The notes: generated from the sequence alone by a model not told the origin. Positions 1,111-56,675 are shown, counted from the first letter of the whole stretch. The stretch: 57,027 nucleotides of DNA, filler included, from Jimgerdemannia flammicorona (GCA_003990765.1; 2 parts of 2 records of this genome joined end to end with filler, not necessarily neighbours in it), one strand, 5' to 3'. Numbers and translations: made by a program.

Positions 1111-1877
1111 TGTAATAACTCTCACTTCTACCCCTCTCTTATCCTTTGGATAATTAGGGAAGTGGACTATTACTTAGGGACTTAGTACACAATGTGTACC
1201 AAGAAGCCTTCAGTTTGAGGAAGTGCTTGCTTATAAGTAGTTGTAGCAGCAGTGCCTTCTATTTCAAAGGTCTTGTTCTTTGCTATACACAGACTGAATT
1301 TGCCTTAGAATTCAGGTTCAATGAGTTTACTTAAGTCTTTGAGGATTTATATACTGGTCTCAGTTCTGGCAGAAGTTAGCTAGGCTTCTGGAGTTTAGTC
1401 AGAAACACTAGAGTCACTTAGATATTATTACTAAGACTCAGGGGAATGTGTGTATGGAGGGAGGACTTGATTCTTGTATCAAGAACTGAACTAAAACTGC
1501 TTTATTTCAGATGGAAACTGGGGGGTATTTATACAAGTTGGTCTATGATTTCTGACTAAGTATGAGTGACTAATTTGGTAACTATAATGAGGTTTGTGAT
1601 TGCGACCTTTGTCAGGTGGTTTTTGGCAAAAAACAACTTTGTGATCAGGATCTCAATTACTAGGCAATGATCAGCTACTGTAGTAACAGTTGCTGTGGCG
1701 TTGATTGTTGGGGATAAGCTGGATATCGTTTTTTGTGTCATTTTCACATCATTCGTTCATTTGTCACTTGCTACTCATATGTTATGCTTTTTTCATATGA
1801 TGACGTCATTGCTTCCAGGTCACATGATCACTTGTCTCATCACGTTCCATCTGTTCATGCTCTTTCATTCTATTACA
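1111..1877 (-). repeat. Family-1 LTR shared by two tandem elements
   Basis: TGTAAT...ATTACA termini; matches 9335-10079 and 40918-41692. PPT (AGGGGGAAAGAA on -) on one side, PBS on the other. Confidence 0.93.
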
Positions 1878-1888
1878 TTCTTTCCCCC

Positions 1889-2731
1889 TTAGAAATCAAT
1901 GTCCTCATTGATTTGGAAATTAAGAACCAGGGGAGAGAAAGGTGGAGAATCTTCCTCAGGATTGTTGCCATCTTCTTTAGTGGCAGGGAGGGTGGTTGCT
2001 GATGGCTCGCTGTCTAGGATGGAGAAGTCAATGAGGTCTGCAAATGGTTCTTACATGGGGATGGGTGCTGGTATAGGGGTTCTCCATCTGATGCAGTTGG
2101 GGCCATCCAAGTAGGGTTCTTGGTCCTTATGCCTGGGGATATCCATTCAGATTGGGGGTCCTTCCAAGAGGTCAGAGAGACCTTGGAGCCATTGGTCTGA
2201 GTTATCATTCAAGAGGGGGCTCTAGTGAGGCTCGATGTCAGTAGACTTGAGGGCAATCCAGAAGTTGGCTTCTTGGGTAACCTTGACTTCCAGGGCATCA
2301 ACCTTGGGGAAAGAGAGGTTCTGGAAGTCCTTCAGTTATATGTAGTTGAGATTGGGGATCACAAAGGGTGCATGGTGCATGATTTAGTGGACCTTCTTGG
2401 CAAGTCTTTGCTAGTACCTGTCTAGGTGAGTCTAGTCAGAGACCTGGTCAGTGGGTAGGCCATTTGTATGTTGGAGAAGCTGGTGACTGATTTCATATTC
2501 ATGCCAGATTTCTAGGTGGCTGGTAGCAAGGTAGGCCCTTTTGATAAGTTTATGGTGGTCAAGAACATACTATCCTAGGTCTGGGCTGGAGAGGTTAAGG
2601 GCCTCTGAGTGGTGGTTCCTTCCTTAGATAGCAACCTGGATGTGTCCAAAGAGGCAGTCAACCTGGCTTGGGAGGGGCTGGCTATGGTGGGCAGTTTGGT
2701 GGTAGGTAGCTTGGCTGCAGGTAGTAGGCAT
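1889..2731 (-). pseudogene. Accessory ORF3 of family 1 (~280 aa, unknown function)
   Basis: One frame of 281 codons from ATG 2731 to a TAA abutting the PPT. Internal stops are mostly single C>T/G>A changes; the second copy (41704-42528) keeps the frame. Confidence 0.75.
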
Positions 2732-2795
2732 TCTTGTCTTATCTTTTCTTTGTGAGGAGAGGGGGATGAGGGTTGCAGAGTATTCTTACCTTGGG

Positions 2796-2803
2796 TATTT
2801 ATA
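2796..2803 (-). promoter_or_regulatory. Internal TATA box upstream of ORF3
   Basis: GTATAAATACCC ~65 nt upstream of the ORF3 ATG; same core as the LTR TATA; TATAAATA conserved at 42593-42600. Confidence 0.6.
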
Positions 2804-3363
2804 CTTATTCACCCATCTGGTGTGACCTTCCTTTGGTCATGCTTTTCAGCAAAATGTATGATATGTTGCTGTAAGTGGGGCATGTGCTGGCCACATAAGA
2901 AAATCCTGATTTCAAAGATATTGTCACTTGTAGTTGTGGTTACACAGGGTTAACAGGTCTTGGTCCACTTTTTTTTTGTCTGGTTGGTGCATTTGCGAGA
3001 ACTGGCCATCCTTGTCTAGGGCAAGGGCTCTCATTGTTATGGCTGGGGTTTCAAACCTCTCAGAAATATAATTTGAGGCAATTCCTAGTAACAATATCTA
3101 TCACATGGATAGACTTAGACTGGTTTCGACATTGTCAGCTTTCCTAAGTTTCATATGAAGCATCCATCATCATCCAGTGGAGATGATACAGATAGCATGA
3201 AATGGAGCTGTTCAAATGTGTTTTGCTGTACTGTACTAGATTGTCCTTTGCTCGAGTATCTCCTTATTGATTATCCATAGTGTTTCTTTTTTCTGCAATG
3301 TTCAGTATTATATGTTTGAGATAAGATATGTAGTATCTTTCTGCTCACTAGGTGCTCCAATAT

Positions 3364-6300
3364 TTAGAGCTGCAGTTCCTTCCTTTGGTAGGGAGTGAGT
3401 GTTTCCATATAGTCCTGAAGGACTTCACATACATTCTTCAGGGCTTCTTCTTTTTTCCAGGTGGTGTCATGGGTGGAGTAACCCTTCTACTTGATCAGGA
3501 AAAACCGCTTGACTGTTTTGGGATATTTGCAGACCTTGTGGTCAAGTACTTTCTCAATTTCAAATTCCTCATGATCATTGATCCTAATTGGGAGTAGTGG
3601 TGGAACTGTATGCTTGGGGAATGAGTTCTCATAGTAGTCCACCAATTGGCTGATATGGAATACTGGGTGTACTTGGATATTGTAGGGAAGTTGCAACTTG
3701 TAGTTGACTTTACTGATTTTTTCCACAATCTTGTATGGTCCAATTCTTCTAGCATGAAGTTTCTTGGCTGATTGTTGTGCTAGGGTGTCTAGGTGAAGGT
3801 GGTCTGTTCTAAGCATAACTATATTACCAATATTGTAAGAGACTTCTCTTCGCTTCAGGTTCGTATACTTGGTCTGATAGTCTTGTGCTTCTATGAGAGC
3901 ATTTCTTGTTATTCAGGTAAGGTCAGAAATGGTCTTGGCCAGGTCTTGGGCTGCTGGGACTGCTGATTTTGCAGTAGTGCTTAGGGTCCTTGGGTATTGA
4001 CTATGGTTCAGGAAGAATGGAGTCTTCTTCATGGAGGTTTGCTGACTGTTGTTGTAGGCAAACTCAGTATGGGCTAGGTACTTGTCCCAATCATTTTGCT
4101 TATAACAGTAGAAGATACTAAGCATCTGTTTGAGAGTCCTGTTGGTTCGCTTGGTTTGACCATCAGTTTGAGGGTGGTAGGCAGTAGAGAACTTCAGCTT
4201 GGTTCCATGGAGAGAGAAAAATGCCTTCCAGAAGTTGCTTGTGAACTTGGCATCTTGGTCAGATACAATAGTACTAGACATGCCATGTAGCCTGAATACT
4301 TAGTTGAGGAAAATCTCAGTAATCTCTGGTGCTATCGCAGTGGTCTTAGTGGGTATAAAGTGGGCTTGTTTACTTAGGCGGTCCACAAATACCATAATGG
4401 CATCCCATCCTGCCTAGGTCTTGAGGAGTTGGACAATGAAGTCTATTGCAATCTGATCCCAGTTGTGACTTGGGATAGGTAGTGGTTGTAGGAGTCCTGC
4501 TGGTAGCTTGTTACCACTTTTGAACCTTTGGCACATCTCGCAAGAGACCACAAAGTCTTTGATGTCTTTGGTCATCTTTGGCCAGTAGAACTCTCTTGAG
4601 AGGAGATTGTAGGTCTTTTCAAAACCAAAGTGTCCTGCTGCAGGAGTATCATGGAGTTCCTGCATGATCTTGAGTCACAGAGTATCATTGTTGAGTACAA
4701 CTACTCTGTCATGGTCCCTGTAGATAAGTCCATCATGGTAAGTGAATCTCTTAGACATTTGCCTCATGGGTTCTGGGACCTCGGCCTCTGGGTCTTGGCA
4801 GCATTGAAGGAAATTTGTCAGGGGGCTGTCTTGCTGATAGCCTTCCTTGATCATCTGGGTGAGGTCTCCAATTACTTCAACTATGAAGACAAGTTCATCT
4901 TCCATATAGTATGGGCTGTGTGTGAATATACTGCAATGCATGGTGATCAGTGTAGGCCACAAATAGCTGTCCTAGGAAGAAATGGCACCATTCCTGGAGT
5001 GCAGTGACAATAGCCAGGAGTTCCTTCTCATGGGTGGTATACTGGGTCTCAGCTGGCTTGAGCTTTTGGGAAAGATAGGCCACTGGGCAGTCTTCTTGGC
5101 TGAGTACTGTTCTAATAGCAATGTCAGAGGCATTCGTGGTCAGAGTGAATGGCCTGATAGGGTCAGGTGCAATTAGCACTGAGGCCTCAGTGAGGAGTCT
5201 CTTGAGATGGTCCATAGCCAGGGTACATTCAGGGGTCCATTCAGTTTTGATGTTCACTCCTTTGTGGGCCAGACTGGTCAGTAGGGCTATAATAGCAGAG
5301 TATCCTTGAATAAACCTTTGGTAATAACTAGCAATACCCAGAAAGTACTAGAGTAGCTTGAGAGTAGTGGGGATAGAAATATCCTTGAGGGCTGATACCT
5401 TTCGGGGGTCTACATTGATTCCTTCAGCAGAGATGATATATCCTAGATACTCAATCTGGTCTTAGTAGAACTTGTATTTGCTTATCTTGGCATAGAGCTG
5501 GTGTTCTCGCAGAAGGGTCAGTACTTGTCTGAGGTGGGTGTAGTGTAGCTCTACTGTCTCACTGTAGATTAGTATATCATCAATATACACAAGGACACAG
5601 ATATTGAGAAGTGGTCCAAAGATGTCATTCATCAGATACTGGAATGTTGCTGGTGTATTGGTCAAACCAAAAGGCATGACTCGGAACTGGTAGTGTCCAA
5701 ACCATGTTCAGAAAGCTGTCTTCTCAATGTCCTTCTCATCAATGAGAATCTAGTAGTAGCCATTTCGCAAGTCTAGTAGGGAAAAGATCTTGGCGTTGAA
5801 GATTTGGTATAGTAACTGGCAAGGCATACCAGTTCTTGATGGTGATCTTGTTGAGGGCTCTGTAGTCAATATACATTTGCAGAGAGCCATCCTTCTTCTT
5901 GACAAATAGAATAGGGGCTCCAAATGGAGAGCAACTGGGTTCAATATATCCTTGGGTCAGTAGTTTGGTCAATTCATCTTTGAGGATCTTGAGCTCAGGT
6001 TGGGCCAGTTGATAGATACTCTTGTATGGGGGTTCAGATCCTGGAATAAGATCAATTCCATGTTGGATTTGGCACTTGGGTGGAAGTCCTTGGGGGTCTT
6101 GGAATATATCTTGGAATTCTTCAAACAGTTCTTGAGCTTCTGTTGGAATTGGGCTACTTGTAGCTTCAGTGACTTCTTGTACTATATAGATGAAGTAGGT
6201 ATTTCTCTTTTTTTGAGAGAGTCTCTTCATTTGAATGATAGAGATGATTTCAATTCCCTGGTAGTTGGTACCTTCCTGGGGTGTCAGAGTGATCTTTCTG

Positions 6301-8444
6301 CCTTCATGGGTCAGATTAACCTCGTTGGTTCTCCAGTTGATGTCTGGGTTGTGCTGGGTCAACCAGGCTTTTCCTAGGATGATGTCCTGTCCTGGGAGGT
6401 CTACAATGTTGAAGTCCAACTTCTCTTGATATTTGCCAATCTTGAGTAAGAGATCTTCACAGATCTTGGTCAGTGGTGCAGTCTTGCTATCACCAAAGAT
6501 AACACTTCTTCTTTCAGTAGCTGGTCTGCTTTGGGCTCCAATCCTCTTGGCAGTCTTGGTGCTGATGTAGTTTCTAGTAGCATCACTATCAAGCAAGACA
6601 TTGACATTCTGTCTGTGGATTTGGCCTGTGAACTTGATGCAACTGTCCTCCTTCTTAATGGTGTTGAGCTCTTCATCCTTATTGTTGTTGTCCCAATTGC
6701 TGTCAGTCTCCTCAAAGTCAGTTTCTCCCCATCCTTCACAAGGAGAGTTGTCTTGTTGGAGTTCCTCAGTCTGTTGGACTTAGTTTCTTTCAGAATTGAT
6801 TTTGAAATTCCTGAAGAAGCATGCATGGCATTCACTAACATGTTCCATACAGTATATTCGAATAGAATGAGGGTATTGTCCACATGGTACATAACCATCT
6901 GCAATTCTCTTATACCAGTTTTCATCATCTTCCTTCATGGTAGTGACCTTTTGACTGAGAGATTTGTTGGTTGATCCAAACCCTTCCTTGCCACAGTCTG
7001 TCTGGGAGAGTTCAGGGACTTCTTCAATGGTGAGATCTTGACAGATTTCTTCAATGATTGCTTGGGCAATCCTTTGGCCTGTTTTGACTTCAAATGATGT
7101 GTCTTCAAAATTTCGCAAGATAATGTGGATTTCACCAGTAAATCCTTGATCAACTACTCCTCCTCCTAGCCCAATGTTGAACTCTTTGGCTAGGCTGCTT
7201 TGCTCAGCAAGGTGGATGTATGTTCCTTTGGGAGCTTGTATTGCAATTTCTGTTTGCACTGTAGCATTGGTACTTGGTGGAATGGTGAGGTCTTGACTAC
7301 TGTAGAGGTCATAACCAGTATCAGTTAGGTGGGCCTTAGTGGGGATGGTAGCCTTGTACTATATCTTCTGTACTTTGATGACATTCTCAGAGTTCTTCTT
7401 TCCTGGACCTTCTCCAATGACAGTAATGTTCTGGTTACTGGGTTCACCTGATCTGTTTCTCTTCTCTGGGCATTTGACTGAGATGTGTCCTGCCTTCCTG
7501 CAGATGAAGTACAATATCTTTTCGCGGAGCTGCTTCTTTTCATCCTCAGTGGGAGGTCTGGGTCCTCTGGGGTTTTGCTGGTTCCTTTGATCATTCCTTT
7601 GATCATATCTTTGGTCATTCCTTTGATCATTTCTCCTGGTAGGATTTCTCCTATCTTGGTTATCCTTCTTGTGTTCTCGATTTCATGAGGCTTGTATAGC
7701 AAGGATTTCACAGGCTCTTCTTTGTACTTGGGCAAAACACCATGAATAGTGGGGACATTCTTGGGGAAGATCTTGTTTCTTGATCTTCTGGGTAAGCTAG
7801 TCTGGTAGGGCTGCAAAGAGATAGTTGGCTCTGGTACCATTGATGGCCAAATTGTTCTCCTGATAGGTAAGTCCAATGGTTTTGAGATAGGCATCCATTC
7901 TGGTAGCAAAGGTCTCTAGATCCTCTTTGCCATTCTTGTGGAACTTCATCTGGGACAGTTTGTTCTAAGTTTCTTGTATATAGGCCACATTTCAGAATTT
8001 AGTCAGTAGCAAGGCCTTGAGTCCTGGGCCTGCTTCATAGTTATCCCAACCTGGTCTATTATTGGTAGGTGCTTGTCCATTGACTTGAGGGTGGTTTTCC
8101 CAGATTACTGGATGTTGTTCCAAGGTTTGCCAGAATTTGGCTGCTGTTCCAGTGAAGAATATGGCTACTGTTTCTTCCTGTGCTGCTGATGTGGCAAACA
8201 GCTGTTGGAGGGTACTATTCTGGTTGTTGGTGAGCATTCCTATAGGTACTCAGTTGTCATTCCATTGGTTTGCTTAGTAGCCTGTGTCAACTACATTGAT
8301 GAAGTTTTCGATGTCACTGTTTTTTTTACTGAATGTTGGGATTCACAGAGTCTTGGTTGGTTTGTTCTATTCAGCAATCTGTCCTACTATCCCTGTTAGT
8401 GCTGCTAGCTGGGTAGTCAGTGCTGCAATGTTTGTATCTACTAT
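3364..8444 (-). pseudogene. gag-dUTPase-pol polyprotein pseudogene (family 1)
   Basis: Zinc knuckle (Y)FICRKAGHISVKC near 7470-7510; dUTPase ~6975-7340 (GGGVVDQGFTGEI, QRIAQ, GFGST); RT, RH, IN, chromodomain EEFEIEKVLDH. Many stops; ~108 bp RH deletion near 4905 relative to the 44700 copy. Confidence 0.92.
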
Positions 8445-9334
8445 TGTGTTGACTATTGGTAGTGGGCCTGTTGGGGTAGATTCTCCTAAAGATTGTTCTG
8501 CTTGGTGGGGTTGTGGTGCTGTATGACTTGGGGTTACTTGATTCCCAGATATCAAGTCAAAGAGTCCTGTGAGAGAGGGTAAACTGAACCTCTGTATAGG
8601 TGGCTGGGTTGGTTCTGGGGTCTGATCTTCTTGACCTATGGTTCCTTGATAAATTTCTAGGCCTGCTGTTCCTTGTTGGCTATCATCAGACTGGTAACCT
8701 ATAGAGTCTTCGTCTGACTCCCTTTCCTGATGAGATAGTGCATCCTCGTACTGGCTAGGTCCTTCAAAGAGGATATCAGTCTCTGGCTGAGTAGATGGGT
8801 CTGCTTCTTGTTCAGCAGTAGGAGATGGTTGGCCTGCTTGCTCATTCTCGTACCTGGTAATGGCAGAGGCATAGTATACAACTAGCCTGTCGTAGAGGGA
8901 GGTCTTGATAGAGGTATGATGATATCTGTCAGAGGCAATCCACTTGGCAGCTGCTTCTCTTACAGCAGGGGGTGTAATATAATCTAAAAAATCCTGGATG
9001 GCTATAGCAGTAGATTCTGGGGTCTTAGTGGTTCCAATGTATCCTTGGAGGAGTTCATAGAACCTATGGTGGCTAACAATATTCCTAAGTTCTGGGTGGT
9101 ATGTCCTAAAGGCCTGGTATAGATCCTTGTAAGTCTAGTCAATTACAAGCTGGTGGGTTCTTGGGTCTGTAGTTTCCTGGCACCACCTGGTCCTAATGGA
9201 AAGGGCTTCTCTGGCTCTGGTTTGAGGATCCACAGTTGATTCTGGGGGTTACTCCTGTCCAAGGTTGGTCTTGTTCCAACTTCAGGAGTATATTCTTTGG
9301 TACTTTCTTGGCTGGTAATCCACTGCTACTAAGT

Positions 9335-10079
9335 TGTAATAACTCTCACTTCTACCCCTCTCTTATCCTTTGGATAATTAGAGAAGTGGACTATTACTTA
9401 GGGACTTAGTATACAATGTGTACCAAGAAGCCTTCAGTTTGAGGAAGTACTCACTTATAAGTAGTTGTAGCAGCAGTGCCTTCTATTTCAAAGGTCTTGT
9501 TCTTTGCTGTGCACAGACTGAATTCACCTTGGAATTCAGGTTCAATGGGTTTACTTAAGTCTTTGGGGATTTATATACTGGTCTCAGTTCTGGCAGAAGT
9601 TAGCTAGGCTTCTGGAGTTTAGTCAGAAACACTAGAGTCACTTAGATGTCATTACTAAGACTCAGGAGAATGTATGTGTGGAGGGGGGACTTGATTCTTG
9701 TATCAAGGACTGAACTAAAACTGCTTTATTTTGGATGGAAACTGGGGGGTATTTATACAAGTTGGTCTGCGATTTCTGACTAAATATGAGTGACTAATTT
9801 GGTAACTATAATGAGGTTTGTGATCATGACCTTTGTCAGGTGGTTTTTGGCAAAAAACAACTTTGTGATCAGGACCTCAATTACTAGGCAATGATCAGCT
9901 GCTGTGGCAACAGTTGCTGCAGCTCCGATTGTTGGGGATAAGCTGGATATCGTTTTTTGCGTTCGTCACTCGCTATTCATATGTCGTGCTTCGTTCGTAT
10001 GATGACGTCATCGCCGCCGGGTCACGTGATCGCTCGTCTCGTCGCGTCCCATCTGTTCGCGCTCTTTCGTTCTATTACA
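9335..10079 (-). repeat. Family-1 5' LTR
   Basis: TG...CA ends, TATA at 9750-9757, ATGACGTCAT at 10002-10011, mutated PBS at 9323-9331. Confidence 0.93.
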
Positions 10080-11404: not shown

Positions 11405-14400
11405 ATGGCCGCCGTCCATAGAACAATCGAGGTTCCCCTGCAGGAGGAACAGGTGCTGGAGGTCGACTGCTCGGAACTTCCCCATGATCCCTCTGAACTA
11501 ACCTCCATTTTTCAATCCGAGGGTTGCGCTTTGCAATACTACAGGCTATTGGCCGTGAGTAAGATTATATGCACTATCACTGAAAAGCGCAATAGATTGA
11601 ACTTGAAACGCGTCTATCCTTCTCACCCAATCTCCCCCTCAAACCACAGCTTGAATATGATAAGCAAGGTAGACATCAGGACGCGATCTACATTTTAGGA
11701 ACCGGCCTTGCCGCCGGTACGTGTTCTCGTGAAATTCCAACTTTGTAATCTAAGTCAACGGTGACCAAACCGTATTCAGTTACTTTCATATGTTTCCCTC
11801 ACTGAAATCAGCGTCACAAAGCAACCGCGAACAACCTCGTGCCAAACTTCCACTTCTGACGCTGATCGCTACGCTCAATATCAAGAAGTCCCGTTACGCC
11901 GCCACTCGCGAGGAGAAGAATCAGCCTCTAACAGAGGCGACACAGGCTCTTAACGAGGCAGACTCCATAAACCGTCAGTATGAGCCGACAATGATAGTGA
12001 AAGGCTTGCTTCGCTTGCAACGCGGCGAATTCGACCTCGCGTTTCAGGACTTCCGCATGGTTCTCGAGAGGCGGCCTGGGTGCGTGCCGGCCTTGTTAGG
12101 TAAGGCTCGCATCCAGTACAATCGGAAACAATACAAGCAGGCTCTGCGGTCGTACCAGACCGCCCTGACCAACCAGCCCGCTGGCGGCAGCCCCGAGATT
12201 CGATTGGGTATCGGACTATGCTTTCATAAGCTAGGGATGTATCAGGAGGCTAAGAGGGCCTTCTCTCGCTGCATTCAGACTGTAAGTTGCAGCCTTCTCG
12301 CTCCGGCGGAATGTCCTCGTTTCTGTTAAATTAGCCCAGAGTTACGAATTATAACCCCTAGCCTTGAACTTAAACACCGATATTTTAGAACCCCACGCAA
12401 CCGGACCCGACCGCGTTAATCCTGCTGGCCATCATGGAATTTAACGAGTCCAAGGACTTTACGCGTGGAGAGGATGCGCAGGCTGATGCATTGACGCGAG
12501 GCAGGGGATATATGCAGGAAGCCTACAAAGTCGGCAGGAAGAACGCTGTCGTACTGAACCAATTTGCAAACTATTATTTCCTGCGGAGGGATTTTGCCAA
12601 GGTGGGTGAGTGAAACGCTATTGCGGTCGAAGTCAATGGGGGAAAGTTAGCATCATCACCTATGTTAAGATGCCGCCTTCCTGTCACATAAGTTTTAAAA
12701 GATTACCCCACCTTTGCCATTCCGCGCCCTAAAACACATATAAATATTTTTCCCATGTCATACGTATTGCAGGCAATGCAAGCGGCATCCAAGGCCTCCA
12801 AGGCTGCCGACGACAAATCTATTAAGGCCGAGTCTGCCTACCAGATGGCCAGAGCTCATCATCAAATGGTAAGTTCTCTTGTGTTTACGATTCATGTGGT
12901 GCTATAACTTGCAATCTGCTGACATGTCGGTCGGAAACGTATTACTTTAATAATCACAGCAACAGTTCGAAGATGCCTTCAAGTTATACCGGCAGATCAC
13001 GGAGCTGGATCCAGAACATTTACTCGCGCAGTATGGGTTGGGACAGATGCTCATCTGGAAAGGTACACTTCATATCTGGTTTTGGGGTCTTAAGATGGTA
13101 CAAACGTTAAAAGAGAGGGAATCATTCGCGCTCATCATTTGTTTGAAATTCCAATTCGTTGAAGGTGAAACCGAACTAGCGATTCAAACCTTCGAGAAGG
13201 TGTTGGCTGTCGAGCCCAAAAGCGTGGAGACATTGAAAGTTAGTGTCATTACACTCGGGTATCTTGTGCATGTATCTATCATCACTGACTTCGATGTCTT
13301 AAAAATCGTTTGAATGCATCGAAAGGTCTTGGGGTCCCTATATGCGCAAACTGGCAACCGCAGCAAGGCCCTTGAACTGTTCAGCAAGGTCACGAACATT
13401 ATCCATGAGCACCACTTCGACCTGGATGACCCGGGCATGTTCATCGAGTTAGCCCAGCTAGCGGAGGAAACGGACCCGGTGAAGTCACTGAAATGTACGT
13501 ATTCTTATGAGTTCGTTTTGGTATACATCCAACAGGCTAATGATGCACTTAGGATATGTCTGACACAGCTTATGAGGATGCATTATCGGTTTATTACAAT
13601 CGGGGTGAAAGCGTGAATCCGGAAATTCTCAACAATGTCGCAGCGATGTGCCATTCTTCAGGTAAGTTTCCCACATTTTGTTGAACCTTCAAAAATAAAA
13701 ATTAGAAAGTTCTTATCCGTCTGGCGTTTGTTGGTTTACTCTTCATAGGGGATCTGACAAAAGCTGAGAGCTATTACAATGCCGCTCTGCAGGGGTGCGA
13801 GGAGCTGTTGGTGGATGAAGGTGACTCCACGGCTAAGGAAATCATTAGAGGTTTGGAGTGGACCATGACGTACAACTTGGGCCGCCTTTATGAGGAAATG
13901 CACAATCTGGCGAAGGCGACGGACATTTACAAAAGAATCGTAGCAAGTCATCCCAGCTACATTGATGGTAAGTTACATGATGGCGTCTGCCGGATTGGCG
14001 TCCGAAAAAATGTGTATTGTGCTTGCTTGATAATATTTATTCATCTTTTGATCGATATTATTTCCGGTGTGATTAGCACACCTCCGTCTGGGTGCAATTG
14101 AACAATCACTGGGCCGAATCACTGAAGCAATCGAGCATTACAAGGAGGTATTCGATACCGATGATAAAAATGCGGACGCATGGCTGATGATAGGTCTCGC
14201 GCAGGCGGAAATGAACGAGTCGCGTAACAGCAAGAAGAGTTTGGAACGAGTGGTCAGGGACTGCGATAAGAACGATGTGTACGGGTTAATCGCACTGGGA
14301 AATTATCACCTGGGAGTAGCGAGGGATGCAAAAGGCGACGATAAGAGACTCCAGGTGAGCTTAATTAAATTTCAGTGTATTACTTAAATGGCTATCCATC

Positions 14401-16518
14401 TTCCGTCTAACAATATTTGATGTGTTCTGCACGTTCACAGAGGCAAGAATCGTACCGCATCGCTGCCCAATCTTTCAGCAGAGTTCTCAAGAGCGAACCG
14501 ACCAGCGTTTATGCTGCAAATGGCATTGCCATTGCCATTGCTGAGACTGGCTCACTTAAAGAGGCCCAGCAAACTTTTGATCAAGTTAGAGAGGCCGCGA
14601 GTAATTTTCCATCTGTGATGGTCAATCTGGCGCATATCTTGGTTGAAAAAGGCGAGTTCAGGCAGGCGGTCGTGATGGTAGGGTTTGAACTTTGTATTTA
14701 TATTTTTTAATTGTGGCGCAGCAATGTCAACTTTCACTAAGCGACATTATCTGTTGTGTAGTACGAAAACGTTTCCAAGAAGTACTACGATAACAAAGAC
14801 GCCAATGTTTTACTGTGCATGGCAAAAGCTCAGTTTATGTCCGCCAAAACAGAAAAGAGTCCAGCAGCGATGCTCGATGCACTTCGGTTTACCCAGAAGG
14901 CTTATCACGTGAACCCTACAGACAAAGCGGTGCTCTATGACATTGCACTGGTGCAACAATCATATGCTCAAATGATTGCTGACAAACCCGTAGAGCAACG
15001 AACGACGCAGGAGCTACGACAAGCGATTGCGGGTTTGGAGATGAGCAAGCAAATGTTCCGCACGCTGATGGCCGTGCCATCAGAGGAACACGTTAACTAT
15101 GACCGCAAGCTTGCGGAGCAACGTGTTCGTCACGGTGAATCGTTGCGCGGTCAAATTGAGCGCAGGCTAGCGGAGCAAGAAGAGTTTGAGGATGCAAAGA
15201 ACCGGAAATTGGAGGAAGCGAAGTTGAAGCGGGAGGCAGAGCGGTTGAAGAGAGAACGAGTGGAAGAGGAGGCACGGGAGCGGAGAAGAGAAGAGGAGAG
15301 GAAGGTCGAGGAACAGCGACGGAACGTGATGGATAGAGTGCAAAAAGTCAATGAGGAGATGCGGGATGTCGGCGAAAGTGATGTGGACGAAGAAGAGAAA
15401 AAGGAAAGGAGACGCAGAAGAAAGAAAGACCGAGAAAGGATGGAAGCCGAAGACGGGGAGATGGGTGGCGGTATGGAGGACGGCGACAGTTCCGATGGAA
15501 GAAAACGGAAGAGGACATCGGTGAAAAAGGACAGGGAGAAAAAGGTAAGCTTGTTATAGCCTTAGCAAAACCCAATCGGGAAGGAGGAGTAAGCTTGCGT
15601 ATTATGAGACTGGATATCGGCTTGTATATTTGCTCAACCTATGCTGAACTGTATATGCCTCGAAGACCCAGCCCCGTCGGAAACGTGCCAAGTCTGAGGA
15701 ATACGAGGGAATAGACGGTGGAGATAGCGAGGGGGCATCGCGGAAAAGAAAAATGTAAGTCGTTGTAGATTGTTATTCATAAGTGTGTCCGCAATAATCA
15801 TGTATGCTCATGAGATATTGTTTCTGTAGCAAATCCAAGGATCAGATCGACTCCGAAGATGAACGAGACGGAGAGGAACCAGAGCGGTCGGAAGGGAACG
15901 GCAACTCCTCTGGGAAGAGACGACTGTAGTGAGTACAGTTTCAGGCATTCATGCATCCACCCCATCATAGGAAGTTTGAGGCTTTAACATCAACATTTCG
16001 CTTCATGTACATTCTGCAGTAAATCCAAGGATATGGTTGAATCCGGTGACGACGATGACGACGCGATTGGAGTAAATGAAACTAATATCGACGATGGGTG
16101 GGACGGTGGCGGTGGCAATGGCTCTGCTAGCCCAAAGAGGATGTGAGTCGCTGTCATATTTATTATGATGTTGCCTTCAATTTGTTTATTTACGCTTTCG
16201 CAGAATTGGCTGGATGGCATTCCCGATGGCTCACGTACACGATTCGTGATTTAACCACATTCGTTAGTATCAATGATGACTACGATGCTCCGATGCTCAA
16301 TCACGAGGAGGACCCCGCGGACGGAGCGGGTGAAACAGGCGATGCAGGTGCGGACGAAGAGGACGATGAGCAGGGCGGCGTAGCTTCGCGAAAGAAACAG
16401 TGAGTAGCCTAATCTGCAACAGCAACCGGTTCATGATCATGAAGACTCATGCTATCTATCCAAATTCCATAGCAACAGCAAATCGAAGGCGATTGTGGAT
16501 TCAGAAGAGGATGAATGA
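11405..16518 (+). CDS. CTR9: RNA polymerase II-associated PAF1 complex subunit Ctr9 (multi-exon, TPR repeats)
   Basis: N-terminus RTIEVPLQEEQVLEVDCSELP...LLALEY, TPR exons, YAANGIAIAIAE motif, coiled coil and acidic/basic tail; GT-AG introns. The last exons are approximate. Confidence 0.9.
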
Positions 16519-16777
16519 AAGATGTATAAATGTAAAACTTGGCGATAGAATGATGTACAAATGAAGATCGATAAAGAAACAAATTTGGCCATGGATCTCG
16601 GGGCGATAGAGCTAGGGATTGCCGTGCTGGGAATGATTGGGTTCTACGTCATTTGCGGAAACACGGTCACAGACCCCAGCAAAAAATTCCCCATCGCATC
16701 CGTTCCATAAAACCTGGCTCACAACCCGACCCCTGACACCTCTCCCCATCCACCTTCGCCTCTCCGCCACGAACAAA

Positions 16778-19700: not shown

Positions 19701-19794
19701 CGGTTTCGTCCCGGATGCCGTGGCCCAGAAGGTGGAGAAGGTGGTTGCCCATTTCGAAAACAGGCCTGTCCCTGACCTGATCTGGACCTTCTAA
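16778..19794 (+). CDS. TKL1: Transketolase (multi-exon)
   Basis: [69 protein letters not shown]. Confidence 0.97.
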
Positions 19795-20186
19795 GCGTTT
19801 ATATACATAGTATGGTGTGATATAACTAGACTGTCATTGTCCACCACGCCAAAAACAAAGATTTCTATGTGCACCTCGCTCACCCCAATATAAATGTTCC
19901 TCCTGTGAGCAGTGTTATCGTATTTTCTCTTTGTAGTCGAATTCGTGTTTCTCTTTTTTTTCTTTTGGCATTCTTATTTCTCGTTAACGTACTCCTCTGG
20001 TATCCAATTTTTGGGGTCAAAATGGCATGGAAAAAGATGGTTTTAGGCTTCTGGATGTAGGAAGAACAATTTTGTGTTCCATTGGACGTAGCAAACCATT
20101 TATTCATGTTCTATGGAAGACACGCAAGGACATGGAGTATAACGTGGCATTCACTTATTAATTTCGTCAGGAATACTATATTATTA

Positions 20187-22607: not shown

Positions 22608-23392
22608 TGCAGTGCCGAGATGTGAGGAGAGAACAGTCACAGCATAGCCGGGAATGTTGGTATAAAACCGTGGGAAGCGGAATTTTCCCCCACTACCTTG
22701 CCGTTTAAGCAATTATTACTCCAAATATAAATCATCACATGCAAAAAGCGTAATCGACAACAAAAAAAGGTACTAATCTAGATAGGTCATAAGGTGCTTT
22801 TTAATAAACTTCGCCTCATATAATAATATATCGACCCTGCAAAGTAGAAACGACTATTTTTCCCCAAGGCCATCAAAGCACGTGTCATTGAGCACCCCTC
22901 TGGTAAAAGCCGACGAACATGTATCCAACCGTCTTCTGCACATGGTGGTAACAGATGCTCGCACGGCACTAGCATGACCGTGGCTTGTAGTTTATTTCCT
23001 CGGACGATGCAAGACGTCTATGTAATGGTGTGATAAACTATCCACATGGGGCGTGTTCGTGTTGGAGAGGCGATATCAGAAGAGGAATAAGGGTAGGCTA
23101 AAGACGCTGATCTGTAATTCGATCTGCCAATAATGTTCTCAACCTAACCGATCGCGGTTGTTTTTCCACTATAAGCCGAAACTTTACCACATGTGGTGTT
23201 GTCCTTAAGTGGTACACCAGAACTTTCACATGTCGGTGTTTGACAACTTCTCCACAATCACTTTTGGTGTTCCTCTCTTTCCTTTGCCTTCGTGCTCGTC
23301 GAGGTGGAACGCATCTTGTTATCATAACACTCTTAGCACATTAGTATATATAGACATTAACCCCTCACTTACCCAGGGTGCGGTAGATTGAA

Positions 23393-32851: not shown

Positions 32852-34853
32852 TGTAAGAGGGTTACTTATTAGAGTAATTATTACATAGTTCTGGAAGAGT
32901 TTTCTGGAAGTTCTAGATGTTCAGAAAGATCATTTTCTTATGGTCAAGATCAATTTCATATGGAGTACATCCTCTATGCTTATTGATTTCAAGATTAGAT
33001 TGATATCTCAACCAAAGTCCTTTTTCAGACTAGTTCTGGATATTCAGGATTTTTTGTATTTCAGGAAGTTCAAGAAACTAAGACCAGCTTAGTTGAATTG
33101 GCATATCACTGCAGACAATACCCAATTAGGAAATTTCATGACAGGGTTAGGAGTAGGATCTAATAGAGAGTAGTTTTACTTAAGAGTGGTTTATAGATTA
33201 TTAAATAGGTTTATTTGCTATTCATGATATTGCTATACTAGGAGTAGTTGTGTGAAGGGGTATTGTGGGGAAGTGTTCAGGAATGTTCTTGTATATTCAA
33301 GTCTGTTTGCATCTGAGATTCTGAGGTCTGGGAGAGGGGGTATTTATACTAGTGAGAAGCTATCTGGACTATGCTAAATATGAGTGTAGTACTTAGTATC
33401 TTGCTGAGTCAGTTCACAGTCATATCATATAAGGCTAATCTAACTATACTATGACTGCTAGTCTATTTATAAGTTTAGATGCTATCTGGGTAGTCTTCAA
33501 TGATATTATCTCTGATAAAGTAGTTGTCTAGAAAGAGTTATTTGCAGATTAATTCTCTCTATTCACTGAGGTAATAATATATTGAGACTTCATCTCTATC
33601 TCACAGAATAATATCATCTGTCTCATATGCTGGATAAGGTGTTAGTGGGTGAAGGAGGGATGTATTGTCTTTACTTTCATCAGATTCGCTGTCTGTATAC
33701 CTTCTATAAGTTATGGCACTATAAGTTACTGGATTGTAGTAAGCTGGTGGCTGTGGTTCATGTTGCTCATACTCAGGTAGTAGAGTTGTTGATTCGATCT
33801 CGAGAGTTGTCTGGAGGTACAGATTATATTCTCCAGTCTCTTCATTATAGTTAAAATAATCAGAAGTGAATGTGGGTTGGTACTCATACTAGTGGTCATT
33901 GTCTCAATAAGTCTCATAGATGGTTATGAACTATTGTAAGTTCATTGGCAAGGTTGGCAGAGTGATCAGAGTTGGTAGGGATCCTTGGCTGGAGGTCATA
34001 TCAGCATCAGAGAGATCATTGTCTTCTGCCTCATCTTCATCAAATTGGATTATATCATAGATATTCTTCATAGTATATCTAACTTGGGGTATCTGTAGGA
34101 TATGGTCATTGGGGTGTGGGAAGATTCTGTCTGTAGTCTGAATATACTCAATATACTTGTGGTTGAGTTCTTATATCATGTCATCAATTTGGCCATAGAA
34201 TAGAGTAGTAATCATTTCAGTAGTAGTAACTTAGAGATGGAAGATAACAGTACTATACTTATAGAAGAGTTCTTGATGTTTATAGGCAATGAGTTTCTAG
34301 TGTTGAGACATCTGGGTAATATCTATATTGTAGTGGTGTTTGACCATATCTTCTAGGAGGTAGCTGATTTGGTAGTAGCTTGAGATTTGTCTGATTTGGT
34401 AAGCTTCACTAAGCATGTTCAGGATATTCCATCAGACTTCCACAAAGTAGAGGGGTGCTAAGCTATGGATATTTATGAGAGGCAGAAAAAGTGTAGCTCA
34501 GTTGATAATGGCATTCCAAATATCAGCACAGATGCAGTTGTAGATCTCAGTGGTCATGTTTGTATATGTTCAGGAGTTGAAGTTATTTATTTAGTTTGTT
34601 TTAGTTCTCTGTTTCAACATATCTCAATGCTTGGTATATATGCATTTGGTCCTGATTGGTAAGATTCTGTTTATGTAAATCTTATATTTTGTGACTTTAT
34701 ATTGACTCAGCTTTGTATGCTATAACTTTAGTTTGACTCAGCTTTATAATCCTATATGTAATTTCTGGATTTGTTCAAACATCACATGTGATTTCAGTGG
34801 CTTGTTTAGAGGGTGACATGTAATTTCAGTGGCTTGGAGGTTGTATATTTACA
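32852..34853 (-). repeat. Family-2 3' LTR (2002 bp) containing the U3 ORF at 33475-34557
   Basis: TGTAAG...TTACA termini; reverse complement of 45986-48082; PPT at 34855-34866. Confidence 0.92.
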
Positions 34854-40917: not shown

Positions 40918-41692
40918 TGTAATAACTCTCACTTCTACTCCTCTCTTATCCTTTAGATAATTAGGAAAGTAAGACTATTACTTAGGAACTTAGTACACAG
41001 TGTATACCAAGAAGCCTTCAGTTTGAGGAAGTGCTCACTTAAAAGTAGTTGTAGTGGTAGTACCTTATCTTTTAAAGATCTTTCTGATTTGCCCTATCTT
41101 TCAAGGATCTTGTTCTTTGCTATGTACAGAGTTAATTCGCCTTGGAATTCAGGTTCAATAGATTTACTTAAGTCTTTAGGGATTTATATACTAGTCTCAG
41201 TTCTGGCAGAAGTTAGCTAGGCTTCTGGAGTTTAGTCAGAAACACTAGAGTCACTTAGGTGTCATTACTAAGACTCAGGAGAATGTGTATATGTAGGGGG
41301 GACTTGATTCTTATATCAAGGACTAAACTAAAACTGCTTTATTTTGGATGGAAACTGGGGGGTATTTATACAAGTTGGTCTATGATTTCTGACTAACTAT
41401 AATTTAGTAACTATGGTGAGGTTTGTGATTGCAATATCTATTGCTAGGAAATGATCAGTATTGCTGCAGCACTAGTTGCTATAGTGCCAATTACTGTAGT
41501 GCTGATTGCTGCAGTACCGTACTGCAGCACTGATTACTGAGAATAAGCTGGATATTATTTATTTACATTGTTTGCATCATTTATTATATTCATCATTCAT
41601 AATATTATATATCATGCTTGATTATATGATGATGTCATTACTTGCTGAGTTATATGATTGCTCATTACATCTTGTCTGTTTGTTCTATTACA
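40918..41692 (-). repeat. Family-1 3' LTR
   Basis: TGTAATAACTCTC...CTATTACA; PPT at 41693-41705. Confidence 0.92.
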
Positions 41693-41703: not shown

Positions 41704-42528
41704 TTAGAAATCAATATTCTTGTTAATTCAGAAATTGAGAACCAGGGGAGAGAAAGGCAGAGAATCTTCCTCAGTATTGTTGCCATCTTCTTCAGTAGCA
41801 GGAGTGGTTACTGGTGGCTTGCTGTCCAGAATGGAGAAGTTAATAAGGTCTGCAAATGGTTCTTATATTGGAATAGGCACTGGTGTAGGGGTTCTCCATC
41901 TGATGCAGTTGGGACCATCCAAGAAGAGTTCTTGATCCTCATGCCTAGAGATATCCATTTGGATAGGTGGTTCTTCAAGGAGGTCATAGAGGCCTTGGAG
42001 CCATTGGTCTGGGTTGTCATTCAGAAGAGGGCTCCAGTGGGGCTCAATTTTAGTAGACTTGAGAGTAATCCAGAAGTTGGCTTTCTGGATTATCATAATT
42101 TCTAGCTTGTCAACCTCAGAAAAGGAGAGGTTCTGGAAGTTCTTTAGTTGTATATAGTTGAGGTTGAGAATTACAAAGAGTGCATGGTGCATAATTTGAT
42201 GAACCTTCTTGGCAAGTCTTTGCTCATACCTGTCCAGGTGGGTTCAGTCTGAAACCTGGTCAGTGGGTAGGCCATTTGTATGTTAAAAAAGCTAGTGGCT
42301 GATTTCATATTTATGCCAGATCTCTAGGTGGCTAGTAGCAAGGTAGGCTCTTTCAATAAGTTCATAGCAGTCAAGGACATATTGTCCTAGGTCTGGGCTG
42401 GAGAGGTTAAGGGTCTTAGAGCAGTGGTTCCTTCCTTAGATAGTAACCTAGATATGTTCAAAGAGATAGTCAACCTGGCTTGGGAGGAGCTGGCTATAGC
42501 AGACAGTTTGGCAGTAGGTAGCAGGCAT
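41704..42528 (-). pseudogene. Accessory ORF3, second copy
   Basis: 275 codons; net length difference from 1889-2731 is a multiple of 3; includes track ORF 41863-42192. Confidence 0.72.
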
Positions 42529-45985: not shown

Positions 45986-48082
45986 TGTAAGCACACAACC
46001 TCCAAGCTACCGGAATTACATGTCACCCTCTGAACAAAGCCACTGAAATCACACGCGAGCTCCGAACAAATCTGGAAATCACCTGCTTGATCACGAAGCT
46101 GAGTCAAACCAAAGTCACAGCGTACAAAGCTGAGTCAATACAAAGTCACAGAACACAAGATCTACACAAACGGAACCTTACCAATCAGGACCAAATGCAT
46201 ATATACTGAGCACCGAGACATGTCAAATCAGAGAACCAAAACAAACAACAACTACAACTTCCAAACATACAAACATGACCACTGAGATCTACAACCGCAT
46301 CCGCGCTGACATTTGGAATGCCATTGTCAACCGAGCCACACCCCCTCTGCCCCTCATAAATATCCATAGCCTGGCACCCCTCTACTTCGTGGAAGCCCAA
46401 TGGAACGCCCTGAACATGCTTAGTGAGGCCCACTGAATCGGACAAATCTCAAGCTACTACCAGATCAGCCGCCTCCTGGAAGACATGGTCGAACACCACC
46501 ATGATACAGACATTACCCAGATGTCTTAACACCAGAAGCTCATCGCCCGCAAATATCAAGAACTCTTCTATGAGTACAACACCTTTATCCCCCGCCTCCG
46601 AGTTACTACCAGCGAAATGGTTGCTACCCTGTCCTATGGGCAAATCGATGATATGATACAAGAACTCAACCATAAGTACCTCGAGTATATCGAAACCACA
46701 GACAGAACCTTCCTGCACCCTGATGACCATATCCTGCAAATGCCTCAAGTCGGATATGCCATGAAAGACGTCTATGATATAATCCACTTCGATGAAGATG
46801 AAGCAGAAGACAATGATCCCTCTGACGCCGATATGACCTCTAGCCAAGGATCTCTGCCAACCCTGATCACTCTGCCAACCCTGATCACTCTGCCAACCTT
46901 GCTGATGAACTTACAACAGTTCATAACTGCATATGAGACTTATTGGGACAATGACCACTGGTACGAATACCAACCTGCATTCACCCCCGATTACTTCAAT
47001 TACAATGAAGAGACCGGAGAACACAATCTGTACCTTCAGACAACCCTCGAGATTGAACCAACCACTCCACCACCTGAGTATGAGCAACATGAACCACAGC
47101 CGCCAGCATACTATAACCCCGCAACTCATAGTGCTATAACCTATAGAAGGTACGCAGACAGCGAATCCGATGAAAGTGAAGACAGTATACCCATCCTTCA
47201 CCCACCAACACCTTATCCAGCATACGAAACAGATGATGCTATCCTGTGGGATGGAGATGAAGTCCCAATGTATTACTACCTCAGCCAACAAGGAGAAGTA
47301 ATCCGCGAATCATTATTCCTAGACAACTACTTTATCAGGGATGATACAATCGATAGTGATGTCATCGAGGAATACCCAGACAGCACCTAAACCTATAAAT
47401 AGTCTAGCAGTCATAGTATAGATAGATTAGCCTTGTACAATGTGACTGTGAACTGACTCAGCAGTCAGATGATCTCTTGACATGTCAGATCACACTTGTA
47501 CTACATGACTACATTCTGACTCAGCAAAGCACTTAGTGCTACATCCATATCTAGCCTAGTCCAGATAGCCCCTTACTAGTATAAATACCCCCTCTCCCAG
47601 ACCTCAGACCTCAGAATCTCAGACTTGAAGACTTGAACAATCCGAACACAACTCCTGAGCACTTCCCCACAATATCCCTTTACACAACTACTCCTAGTAT
47701 AGCAATATCATGAATAGCAAATAAACCTATTCCATAACCCACAAACCACTCTTAAGTAAATCTGCTCTCTGTTAGGTCCTACTCCTAACCCTGTCACGAA
47801 ATTTCCTAATTGGGTATTGTCTGCAGCGATACGCCAATTCAACTAAGCTGGTCTTAGTTTCTTGAACTTCCTGAAATATGGAAATCCTGAACATCCAGAA
47901 CTAGTCCAGAAAAGGACTTTGGTTGAGACGTCAACCCAATCTTGAAATCAATAAGCGTAGAGGATGTACTCCATACGAAATTGATCTTGACCATAAGAAA
48001 ATGGTCTTCCAGAATATCCAGAACCTCCAGAAAACCTTTCCAGAACTACGTAATGGTTACCCTAAAAAGTAACCCTCTTACA
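45986..48082 (+). repeat. Family-2 5' LTR (2097 bp)
   Basis: TGTAAG...CTTACA; TATA at 47580-47587. Confidence 0.95.
46275..47390 (+). pseudogene. LTR(U3)-encoded accessory ORF (~371 aa)
   Basis: ATG 46275 (MTTEIYNRIRADIW) is in frame with track ORF 46617-47390; only two stops (TGA, TAA), each one C>T from CGA/CAA. Confidence 0.8.
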
Positions 48083-54178: not shown

Positions 54179-54603
54179 AACCAAATACTCTGCACCTATC
54201 CATACATACTATATATTACCCTCCTGAACATTATAACTATTACGAACCAAATCAAGAACTCGGCAAAACAAGACAAGAATACCAACCCTCTGAAAAAATA
54301 GCAAAACTGAAAGCAAGCCTATTCTCCCTGTACCACTGGTGGGAAACAAGGCATAGACATTTAAGAAGATTCCTTAGAGGAAATTCTCCAGCAGTGAATG
54401 ACATCAGAATCACTTCTGGTGCACAGCATTGAACACACGACCCTTTAACATGTGAATCCAATGTATTAGGCAACTGTACTACAAGCATGCCACTTTCTGA
54501 GAAAATGGACCTTGCCGGACTTTTGACCTCCCAAATGGTGTAACAACACTAGAACAAATTAGAAGGCCCTGACAAGGATGTCGAAAGCTAAGAAGGGGAG
54601 AGT

Positions 54604-56675
54604 TGTAAGTGCATAACCTCCAAGCCACCGAAATCACATGTCACCCTTGGAACAAGCCACTGAAATCACACGTGACCTCTGAACAAATCTGGAAATCACC
54701 TGCTTGATCACAAAGCTGAGTCAAACCGAAGTTACAGCACACAAAGCTGAGTCAATACAAAGTCACAGAACATAAGATTTACACAAACAGAATCTTATCA
54801 ATCAGGACCAGATGTATATATACCGAGCACTGAGATGCGTCGAATCAGAGAACCAAAACAAATAACAACCACAACTTCCAAACACACAAACATGACCACT
54901 GAGATCTACAACCACATCCGTGCTGACATTTGGAATACCATTGTCAACCGAGCCACACCCCCTCTGCCCCTCATGAATAGCCATAGCCTGGCACCCCTCT
55001 ACTTTGTGGAAGCCCGATGGAATGCCCTGAACATACTTAGTGAGGCCCACTGAATCGGACAAATCTCAAGCTACTACCAGATCGGCTGCCTCCTGGAAGA
55101 TATGGTTGAACACCACCATGATACAGACATTACCCAGATGTTTCAACACCAGAAGCTCATCACCCGCAAACATCGAGAACTCTTCTATGAGTACAACACC
55201 TTTATTCCCTGCCTTCGAGTCACTACCAGCGAAATGGTTGCTACCCTGTCCTATGACCAAATCGATGACATGATACAAGAACTCAACCACAAGTACCTTG
55301 AGTACGTCCAGACCACAGATAGAACCTTTCTGCACCCTGATGACTATATCCTGCAAATGCCCCAAGTTGGATATGCTATGAAGGATGTCTATGATATAAT
55401 CCACTTCGACAAAGATGAAGTAGAAGACAATGATCTCTCTGATGCCAATATGATCTCTAGCCAAGGATCTCTGCCAACCCTGATCACACCACCAAACTTG
55501 CCAATGAACTTGCAACAGTTCATAACTGCATATGAGACTTATTGGGACAATGACCACTAGCATGAATACCAACCCGCATTCACCCCCGACTACTTCAACT
55601 ACAATGAAGAAATCAGAGAACACAACCTGTACCTCCAGATAACCCTCAAGATCGAACCAACCACTCTACCACCTGAGTGCGAGCGACATGAACCACAGCT
55701 ACCAGCTTACTACAATCCTGCAACTCATAGTACTGTAACCTATAGAAGGTATGCAGACAGTGAATCCGATGAAAGTGAAGACAATACACCCATCCTTCGC
55801 CCACCAATACCTTATCCAGCCTACGAGACAGACGATGCTATCCTATGAGATGGAGACAAAGTTCCAATATACTATTACCTCAGTAAACAAGGAGAAGTAA
55901 TCCGCGAACTATTATTCCTAGATGACTACTTCATCAGAGATGATGCAATCGATGGTGATGTCATCGAAGACTACCCAGACAGTGCCTAAACTCATAAATA
56001 GCCTAGCAGTTATAGTATAGTTAGATTAGCCTTGTATGACGTGACTGTGAACTGACTCAGCAGTCAGACAATCTTCTGATATATCAGATCACACTTGTAC
56101 TACGTGACTGCATTCCGACTCAGCAAAGCACTTAGTGCTACACCTATATTTAGCATAGTCCAGATAGCCCCTCACTAGTATAAATACCCCCTCCCCCAGA
56201 CCTCAGAATCTCAGACTTAAACAGACTCGAACACACAAGAACATTCCTGAATACTTCCCCATAATACCCCTTCACACAACTATTCCTAGTATAGCAATAT
56301 CATAAATAGCAAATAAACCTATTCCATAACTCACAAATCACTCTTAAGTAAATCTGCTCCCTGTTAGGTCCCACTCCTAACTCTGTCACGAAATTTCCTA
56401 ATTGGGTATTGTCTGCAGCGATATGCCAATTCGACTAAGCTGGTCTTAGTTTTTTGAACTTCCTGAAATACAGAAAATCCTGAACATCCAGAACTAGTCC
56501 GAAAAAGGACTTTGGTTGAGACATCAACCGAATCTTGAAATCAATAAGCGTAGAGGATGTACTCCATACGAAATTGATCTTGACCATAAGAAAACAATCT
56601 TCCAGAATATCCAGAACCTCCAGAAAACCCTTCCAGAACTATGTAACAGTTACCCTAAAAAGCAACCCTCTTACA
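54604..56675 (+). repeat. Family-2 3' LTR (2072 bp) with U3 ORF copy at 54892-55989
   Basis: TGTAAG...CTTACA; the 25 bp length difference from the 5' LTR is accounted for by 18-bp and 7-bp duplications in the latter. Confidence 0.95.

Follow-up and report, generated by a model that had tools for sequence, protein, structure and literature searches.

A probably shared 3'-end accessory gene outside the LTR in one chromovirus family and inside it in a distant relative: a candidate case of polypurine-tract relocation

We have analysed a 57,027-nucleotide stretch of DNA from Jimgerdemannia flammicorona (GCA_003990765.1; two parts joined with filler, hereafter the window), and find two related families of long terminal repeat (LTR) retrotransposons whose additional open reading frames lie on opposite sides of the LTR boundary. 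In family 1 the ORF ends on the polypurine tract (PPT), just outside the LTR, and in family 2 an ORF lies entirely within it. We provide evidence that the N-terminal domains of the two encoded proteins, about 120 collinear residues, are very probably homologous. As judged from the placement of genes, stop codons and motifs, the 3' architecture is collinear between the families, and only the positions of the PPT and of the TGTAA LTR terminus differ. Relocation of the PPT is, in our assessment, likely to be the best explanation of a gene found outside the LTR in one family and inside it in the other.

Self-blastn of the 57 kb window, together with the junction sequences, was the basis for all LTR, primer-binding-site (PBS) and PPT coordinates, and shows the two families nested around an island of host genes. 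Family-1 copy 1 lies on the minus strand, with a 3' LTR of 767 bp (TGTAAT...TTACA) at 1111..1877, an internal part at 1878-9334 and a 5' LTR at 9335..10079. Family-1 copy 3 (40918-45985, minus strand; LTR at 40918..41692) is interrupted by family-2 copy A, which lies on the plus strand with a 5' LTR of 2097 bp (TGTAAG...CTTACA, followed by the PBS) at 45986..48082 and a 3' LTR at 54604..56675. Family-2 copy B, on the minus strand (32852-40917), has its 3' LTR at 32852..34853 and is 5'-truncated at 40917, without a 5' end. Junctions are canonical in both families: LTRs begin with TG and end with CA, a PBS follows the 5' LTR and a PPT precedes the 3' LTR. The PBS, ACTTGGTAGCAGC..., is identical in the two families, and the PPT is AAGGGGGAAAGAA in family 1 and AAGAAGGGGAGAG in family 2.

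By their domain content, both families are dUTPase-bearing chromoviruses, that is, Ty3/gypsy elements with a chromodomain. Pfam matched all the domains of family 2 (gag-CCHC, dUTPase, protease, RT, RNase H, integrase and chromodomain), and in family 1 it matched dUTPase, protease, RNase H and the integrase SH3 domain. The RT and chromodomain of family 1 are visible in translation and by similarity to family 2 rather than by Pfam, which also gave no match to a CCHC motif in family 1; the domain order is that of family 2 as far as the broken frames permit. Sequence comparison makes the two families distant relatives, with 56-60% identity in pol DNA, 55% over the best pol segment (249 residues), 39% in gag (222 aa) and 87.5% over the 32 nt that span the LTR end and PBS.

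Beyond the LTR at 1111-1877, in element orientation, positions 9-1110 contain a second PBS and gag segment that is 90% identical to 8233-9334; read from the sequence, these parts form a tandem LTR-internal-LTR-internal array with one LTR in common, an outcome expected of unequal recombination. No matching target-site duplication flanks family-2 copy A (45981-45985 versus 56676-56687), the sequence 3' of its 3' LTR does not resume the interrupted family-1 copy 3, and its LTRs are 11% apart, with codon periodicity within the ORF; it may be a recombinant of two insertions. A 378-bp fragment of a family-2 LTR end lies at 28087-28464, 4.4 kb from the LTR end of copy B and in the same orientation, and the intervening 28465-32851, where GC skew is very strong (0.4-0.49) and long ORFs are lacking, may represent a further decayed insertion. 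The host gene island between the elements (11754-22712) has a GC content of 47-50%, against 35-44% in the elements, and holds pieces of a TPR-repeat protein (11754-12329 and 13706-14101), a transketolase with at least two exons (17813-18622 and 18925-19575) and a TrmE/MnmE-type GTPase on the minus strand (21297-22712).

The additional ORF of family 1, ORF3, occupies one minus-strand frame at 1889..2731 in copy 1, with 280 codons and a terminal TAA, and 9 internal stops. In copy 3 the frame is kept at 41704..42528 (minus strand) with 7 internal stops. A spacer of 632 nt (2732..3363, minus strand) separates the pol stop (3364-3366) from the ORF3 ATG, and the family-1 PPT (1878..1890, minus strand) overlaps the ORF3 stop codon (1891-1889), with the LTR beginning at 1877. 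The family-2 ORF, of about 371 codons and starting MTTEIY..., lies entirely within the LTR in all three LTR copies: at 46275..47390 in the 5' LTR of copy A (plus strand, 371 codons and a stop, 2 internal stops), at 54892..55989 (plus strand, 3 internal stops) and, in copy B, at 33475..34557 (minus strand, 11 internal stops). Its layout is that of a U3-encoded gene: it lies inside the LTR, 3' of the PPT and 5' of the putative LTR promoter. The family-2 PPT (54590..54602, plus strand) follows the pol stop (54176-54178) by 412 nt, the PPT and LTR terminus together falling 412-425 nt after pol, and precedes the ORF ATG by about 290 nt.

These descriptive elements agree with the original prediction. 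The frame at 1889-2731 was recovered, and all of the quoted peptides are present, LFGHIQVAI*GR, YEISHQL and QRLAKKVH*IMHH... in ORF3 and IRADIWNAIVNR, YQISRLL and KLIARKYQELF... in the family-2 ORF. Self-blastn and the junction sequences likewise give the orders described there, pol-ORF3-PPT-LTR on the minus strand in family 1 and pol-PPT-LTR in family 2, with the ORF within the LTR, and the LTR lengths of 767 and 2097 bp correspond to the 0.75 and 2.1 kb that had been estimated. Acidic, proline-rich tails had also been noted in both proteins, and the C-terminal parts in both families have a pI of 4.1-4.3, 18-24% aspartate plus glutamate and 9-15% proline; the N-terminal domain is near-neutral.

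Relatives of either ORF are few. An exhaustive profile search of 1.84 billion representatives with family-1 ORF3 returned six proteins at E <= 0.001, and five of these (P0006, P0009, P0010, P0011 and P0012) are true relatives, including intact proteins of 342 aa (P0009) and 247 aa (P0010); the sixth, P0013, is a repeat protein and was taken as a false match. A metagenome contig of 1535 bp, L001, encodes an intact 291-codon homologue that is 55% identical in alignment to the copy at 1889-2731, and that copy is 60% identical to intact P0015 and to P0006, a close relative of the L001 ORF (tblastn). The layout of L001 is that of family 1, with the stop codon on the PPT and then TGTAAT. L001 is the one relative with element context, and five true relatives in 1.84 billion representatives do not bear out the suggestion that the gene defines a clade.

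For family 2, two intact relatives were found: P0014, which covers the N-terminus (128 aa, 91% identity, no stops), and P0005, which covers the C-terminus (247 aa, 65% identity). Protein searches gave nothing beyond these two, metagenome contigs yielded no further family-2 sequences, and viral contigs held no relative of the ORF of either family. Within the spacer between pol and ORF3, a block of 45 nt (2984-3028, minus strand) is 84% identical to positions 9-54 of L001, at a level of ORF3 protein identity of just 55-60%. The block sits about 250-370 nt upstream of the ATG, near the position that the PPT and LTR start take in family 2, and may be a regulatory element of the gene cassette.

The pattern of substitution among copies indicates that both ORFs are real genes, or once were. 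In both, the frame is kept across diverged copies and is intact in some relatives, and copy-to-copy differences pile up at third codon positions in the ORFs and not in the flanks (for example, 0.066/0.066/0.170 differences per codon position in an ORF versus 0.093/0.125/0.116 and 0.119/0.070/0.075 in flanks). The dN/dS ratio is about 0.25 between L001 and the copy at 1889-2731, an estimate that is biased because more than 90% of the differences are transitions, and about 0.2 between copies within the window, even between the two LTRs of one element, which are perhaps not sisters because that element lacks a target-site duplication. Given this bias and the doubtful sisterhood of the LTRs, we relied on the codon-position periodicity relative to the flanks.

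Transitions exceed 90% of differences in all element copies (101 of 110 in the family-2 ORF; 55 of 58 between two family-1 LTRs), and the ten stop codons of ORF3 copy 1 comprise five TAA, four TAG and one TGA. Both the transition excess and the types of stop fit C-to-T hypermutation, through cytosine methylation or a process like repeat-induced point mutation (RIP). The metagenome relative L001 looks unmutated.

Direct pairwise comparison of the two ORFs gives marginal results. The statement that they align without gaps holds for a block of 40-50 residues, with 8 of 40 or 10 of 50 positions identical, and fails for the full collinear alignment, which requires small gaps. BLASTP of the block gives E 0.012 (10/50 identities), or E 0.002 with the intact P0006; with the other family-2 copy a different register appears at E 0.10. 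For Smith-Waterman alignments, the number of shuffles out of 500 that attained the real score varied with the pair from 1 to 145, and the family-2 ORF has an equally good match (45 residues, 20% identity, 22 bits) to non-coding sequence of family 1. The 40-residue block by itself, at 20% identity, is at noise level.

Profiles reach further. A family-1 HMM that includes the intact database relatives scores 17.5 bits against P0014 (E 1.1e-7 at Z=1; HMM positions 22-141, residues 9-126), and 11.7, 5.6 and 4.8 bits against decayed family-2 copies, lower with more decay. The highest score among 20,000 shuffles was 12.4 bits, so that none reached 17.5, and reversal of the sequence lowers the score to 1.2 bits. 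The same HMM gives at best 13.3 bits among 177,635 PDB sequences, 5.3 bits among 140 other ORFs of the window once ORF3 and the family-2 ORFs are set aside, and no more than 0.5 bits on 21 translated non-coding flanks. The result is independent of the copies in the window: profiles from database sequences alone or from four divergent members alone still score 16.0 and 15.7 bits, and one from close relatives alone scores 4.4. For the database-only HMM, 1 of 35,000 shuffles (17.1 bits) exceeded the observed 16.0, and the shuffle outcomes together thus place the empirical p at about 1e-6 to 1e-4. The reciprocal family-2 HMM, which is shallow, gives at best 4.1 bits (E 0.001) against family-1 proteins.

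Profile-profile comparison, which the original prediction had named as a check, improves with depth: the hhalign E value falls from 0.075 with three family-1 sequences to 0.0026 with seven, over 126 collinear columns that unite all three blocks noted earlier. None of 300 column shuffles reached the observed score of 29.4 (mean 14.7, maximum 28.7), and reversed controls gave 15.3 and 13.3. Taken by itself hhalign remains weak, with a probability of 10-12% at E 0.003. AlphaFold2 models of the two proteins have mean pLDDT values of 42.9 and 33.5, too low to superpose; the four main helices of these low-confidence models coincide under the hhalign register. The claim of one protein family is supported for the N-terminal domain of about 120 residues, at 16-20% identity between the families, and not for the C-terminal halves of the two ORFs, which give no alignment.

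Databases provide no name for this domain. In a Pfam scan of 12 proteins no family passed its gathering threshold, and PDB sequence searches gave no significant match. A hit to DUF6827 on the decayed copy P0003 (13.8 bits versus a cut-off of 26.9) is absent from P0014, P0004 and P0008, the three further family-2 proteins spanning the same N-terminal part, and was dismissed as noise. ESM Atlas neighbours common to P0015 and P0014 (a 127-aa hypothetical protein, Closter_coat and Translat_reg) have scores of 0.89-0.93, within the range of shuffled proteins; with recognition below 2300 in this resource, shared neighbours are a lead only. The ORFs probably encode a small, unnamed protein family with about 120 conserved helical residues and an acidic tail.

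In spacing and promoter-like motifs the two 3' ends are collinear. The ORF ATG follows the pol stop by 632 nt in family 1 and by 713 nt in family 2, and the LTR end follows the ORF stop by 778 and 692 nt, respectively. A TATA-like box, the putative promoter of the gene, lies 72 nt upstream of the ORF3 ATG (2798..2803, minus strand) and 75 nt upstream of the family-2 ATG (46200..46205, plus strand; LTR position about 215), and such a hexamer occurs 72-80 nt 5' of the ATG in six of six copies. TATA-like hexamers are rare in the elements, at counts of 9 per 8,969 nt and 8 per 10,690 nt, which puts the probability of a chance match in a 9-nt interval at about 0.7-0.9%.

Each of the six full LTRs contains a single sense-oriented copy of a 14-nt motif, GTATAAATACCCCC, which is otherwise absent from the 57 kb (0.01 matches expected by chance). 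It lies at 1521..1534 (minus strand) in family 1, 355 nt after the ORF3 stop, and at 47579..47592 (plus strand) in family 2, 189 nt downstream of the ORF stop; its distance to the LTR end is about 420 nt in family 1 and 500 nt in family 2. We take GTATAAATACCCCC as a putative LTR core promoter, and if it is one, its position downstream of the family-2 ORF places that ORF in U3. The TATA-like box upstream of ORF3, GTATAAATACC (2798-2809, minus strand), repeats the first 11 nt of GTATAAATACCCCC at 1521-1534 (minus strand), and family-1 ORF3 may use a copy of the LTR's own core promoter.

The flanking DNA is nearly saturated with change, and what similarity it retains is faint. Alignments of the 375 nt upstream of the ATG between copy A and family 1 have scores reached by 1, 6 and 15 of 500 shuffles, versus 54, 156 and 28 of 500 for the more decayed copy B and 0 of 500 when L001 was aligned with copy 1 as a positive control. 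The best alignment shows the PPT and LTR start of family 2 as a short insertion within the spacer. Between the spacers, nhmmer found no significant DNA similarity and short local matches are at shuffle level. A collinear 15/16-nt match, GCCCT-GACAAGGATG, that links the family-1 spacer to the bases immediately 5' of the family-2 PPT was discarded, as 265 of 300 shuffles reach its score. No vestigial PPT was found 3' of the family-2 ORF, and no ORF remnant (at most 0.5 bits) in the family-2 spacer between pol and PPT (in copy B, minus its last 82 nt) or in the other flanks.

The same gene could also have reached the family-2 LTR without any movement of the PPT: recombination between a family-2 ancestor and a family-1-like element, or the cDNA of one, would have inserted the cassette of promoter and ORF into U3. 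The original ORF-less spacer would then be represented by the 425 nt that separate pol from the PPT in family 2. The lack of a vestigial PPT after the family-2 ORF speaks for such an insertion, and the 24 nt 5' of the family-2 PPT resemble the last codons of ORF3 and its PPT (54-75% identity by manual count), so that the PPT module could have stayed in place. Against an insertion, the distance from pol to the ATG is preserved (632 versus 713 nt), and the 375 nt 5' of the ATG, a stretch that in family 2 includes both the PPT and the start of the LTR, align weakly but in collinear order with the spacer of family 1 (1, 6 and 15 of 500 shuffles). The family-2 spacer, free of any ORF remnant (at most 0.5 bits), also counts against it, as does the N-terminal domain, which is far more diverged (16-20% identity) than gag (39%) and thus makes a recent exchange unlikely. 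Taken together, we regard insertion into U3 as unlikely.

It is more improbable still, in our view, that the ORFs have separate origins, each having been captured by or having arisen at the 3' end of its own element, and that they resemble each other by chance as helical domains with acidic tails. The noise-level 40-residue block, the hhalign probability of 10-12%, the lack of a Pfam family that links the ORFs and the ESM Atlas neighbours that fall within the shuffled-protein range are all compatible with such a coincidence. Yet chance does not readily account for an HMM score of 17.5 bits that 0 of 20,000 shuffles reach, with 1.2 bits for the reversed sequence and a PDB maximum of 13.3, for scores that are higher with deeper profiles and more intact targets, or for the TATA position and spacing common to both families. 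A further reading accepts the gene and moves the promoter: the genomic promoter would be the TATA-like box 75 nt upstream of the family-2 ORF (LTR position about 215), and the ORF would lie in R/U5 as the first cistron of the full-length RNA. The box is indeed ahead of the ORF, but the shared 14-nt core promoter lies 189 nt downstream of it, at a similar distance from the LTR end in both families (about 420 versus 500 nt), and it would be unusual for an LTR element to have an R region longer than 1.3 kb and to carry gag as a downstream cistron. We consider this reading highly improbable.

Under relocation of the PPT, the explanation that we prefer, ORF3 and the family-2 LTR ORF would be one accessory gene of a dUTPase-bearing chromovirus lineage. 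Its protein would consist of a conserved helical N-terminal domain of about 120-150 residues and a fast-evolving, acidic and proline-rich tail, which is probably disordered. In the genomic RNA the gene would be a 3'-terminal cassette, 630-710 nt after pol and upstream of the shared LTR core promoter, and we predict that it probably has its own subgenomic transcript, because of the TATA-like box 72-80 nt before the ATG. The PPT and TGTAA terminus coincide with the gene's stop codon in family 1 and are placed about 290 nt 5' of its ATG in family 2. In reverse transcription the PPT sets the 5' edge of U3, and a PPT upstream of the cassette would therefore copy promoter and ORF into both LTRs. Use of the upstream PPT would thereby turn an LTR of 0.77 kb into one of 2.1 kb.

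The numbers are consistent with this mechanism: the LTRs differ by 2097 - 767 = 1330 nt, and the cassette comprises a leader of 289 nt and an ORF of 1116 nt. Collinearity of the remaining 3' architecture is also what a moved PPT predicts. The original proposal that PPT relocation explains the LTR lengths is thus supported in so far as the extra 1.33 kb is about the size of the cassette and the architecture is collinear. In L001 the gene has stayed outside the LTR across about 40-45% protein divergence, and of the two states it is the 2.1-kb LTR that is unusual, a mild argument for movement into the LTR.

If the gene did enter the LTR in this way, every family-2 element would have two copies of it, and the complete gene would survive in each solo LTR. 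As to function, our best guess, made with low confidence, is an adaptor-type protein that acts on the life cycle of the element or against host control, in the manner of retroviral accessory proteins encoded at the 3' end. We put forward the complete scenario tentatively, as one that may well be correct but that we would not yet call probable: a fungal-type chromovirus cassette of promoter, ORF and LTR terminator was swept into U3 by relocation of the plus-strand primer site, leaving the gene in two copies and solo LTRs as potential protein-expressing units, so that the two families would form a natural before-and-after pair in which PPT relocation accounts both for the evolution of LTR size and for the entry of genes into LTRs.

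Related families with a gene just outside the LTR and fully inside it provide a concrete, testable case of LTR boundary movement through a change of plus-strand primer site, and it is mainly as such a natural pair that they are valuable. They also illustrate a way for an element to carry an accessory gene at twice the dose and to deposit it in solo LTRs. Additionally, the small protein family described here can now be searched for in fungal genomes.

The extra genes of LTR retrotransposons are poorly understood. Plant LTR retrotransposons carry additional ORFs (aORFs) that are lineage-specific, lie between pol and the 3' LTR and are conserved within lineages (PMC7264820). Both of our ORFs resemble these as extra ORFs of a lineage, in dUTPase chromoviruses here and in plant lineages there, and in the parts of that review available to us we found no mention of an aORF inside an LTR (PMC7264820). 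Basidiomycete Ty3/gypsy elements share the combination of chromodomain and dUTPase with both of our families, and an unexplained 'add. ORF' is mentioned for them; the portion of the text that we consulted gives no family, position or LTR location for it (PMC2864245). Our literature search for ORFs within or encoded by LTRs found no retrotransposon case.

Genes inside LTRs are known mainly from complex retroviruses. The superantigen gene sag of mouse mammary tumour virus (MMTV) is a complete accessory ORF in the U3 of an unusually long LTR, downstream of the PPT and present in both LTRs. The family-2 ORF has the same layout, a whole ORF in the U3 of a long LTR and so in both LTRs, in a chromovirus rather than a mammalian betaretrovirus, and it has no sequence similarity to sag and no Pfam match. 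We know of no close relative of MMTV with a sag gene outside the LTR. In primate lentiviruses and foamy viruses, nef and bel/bet are 3'-end genes that overlap the PPT and U3, and family-1 ORF3 is like them in being a 3'-end accessory gene that ends on the PPT. The proteins are unrelated, and the overlap of nef and bel/bet with the LTR is partial, whereas the gene described here lies wholly before the PPT in family 1 and wholly after it in family 2.
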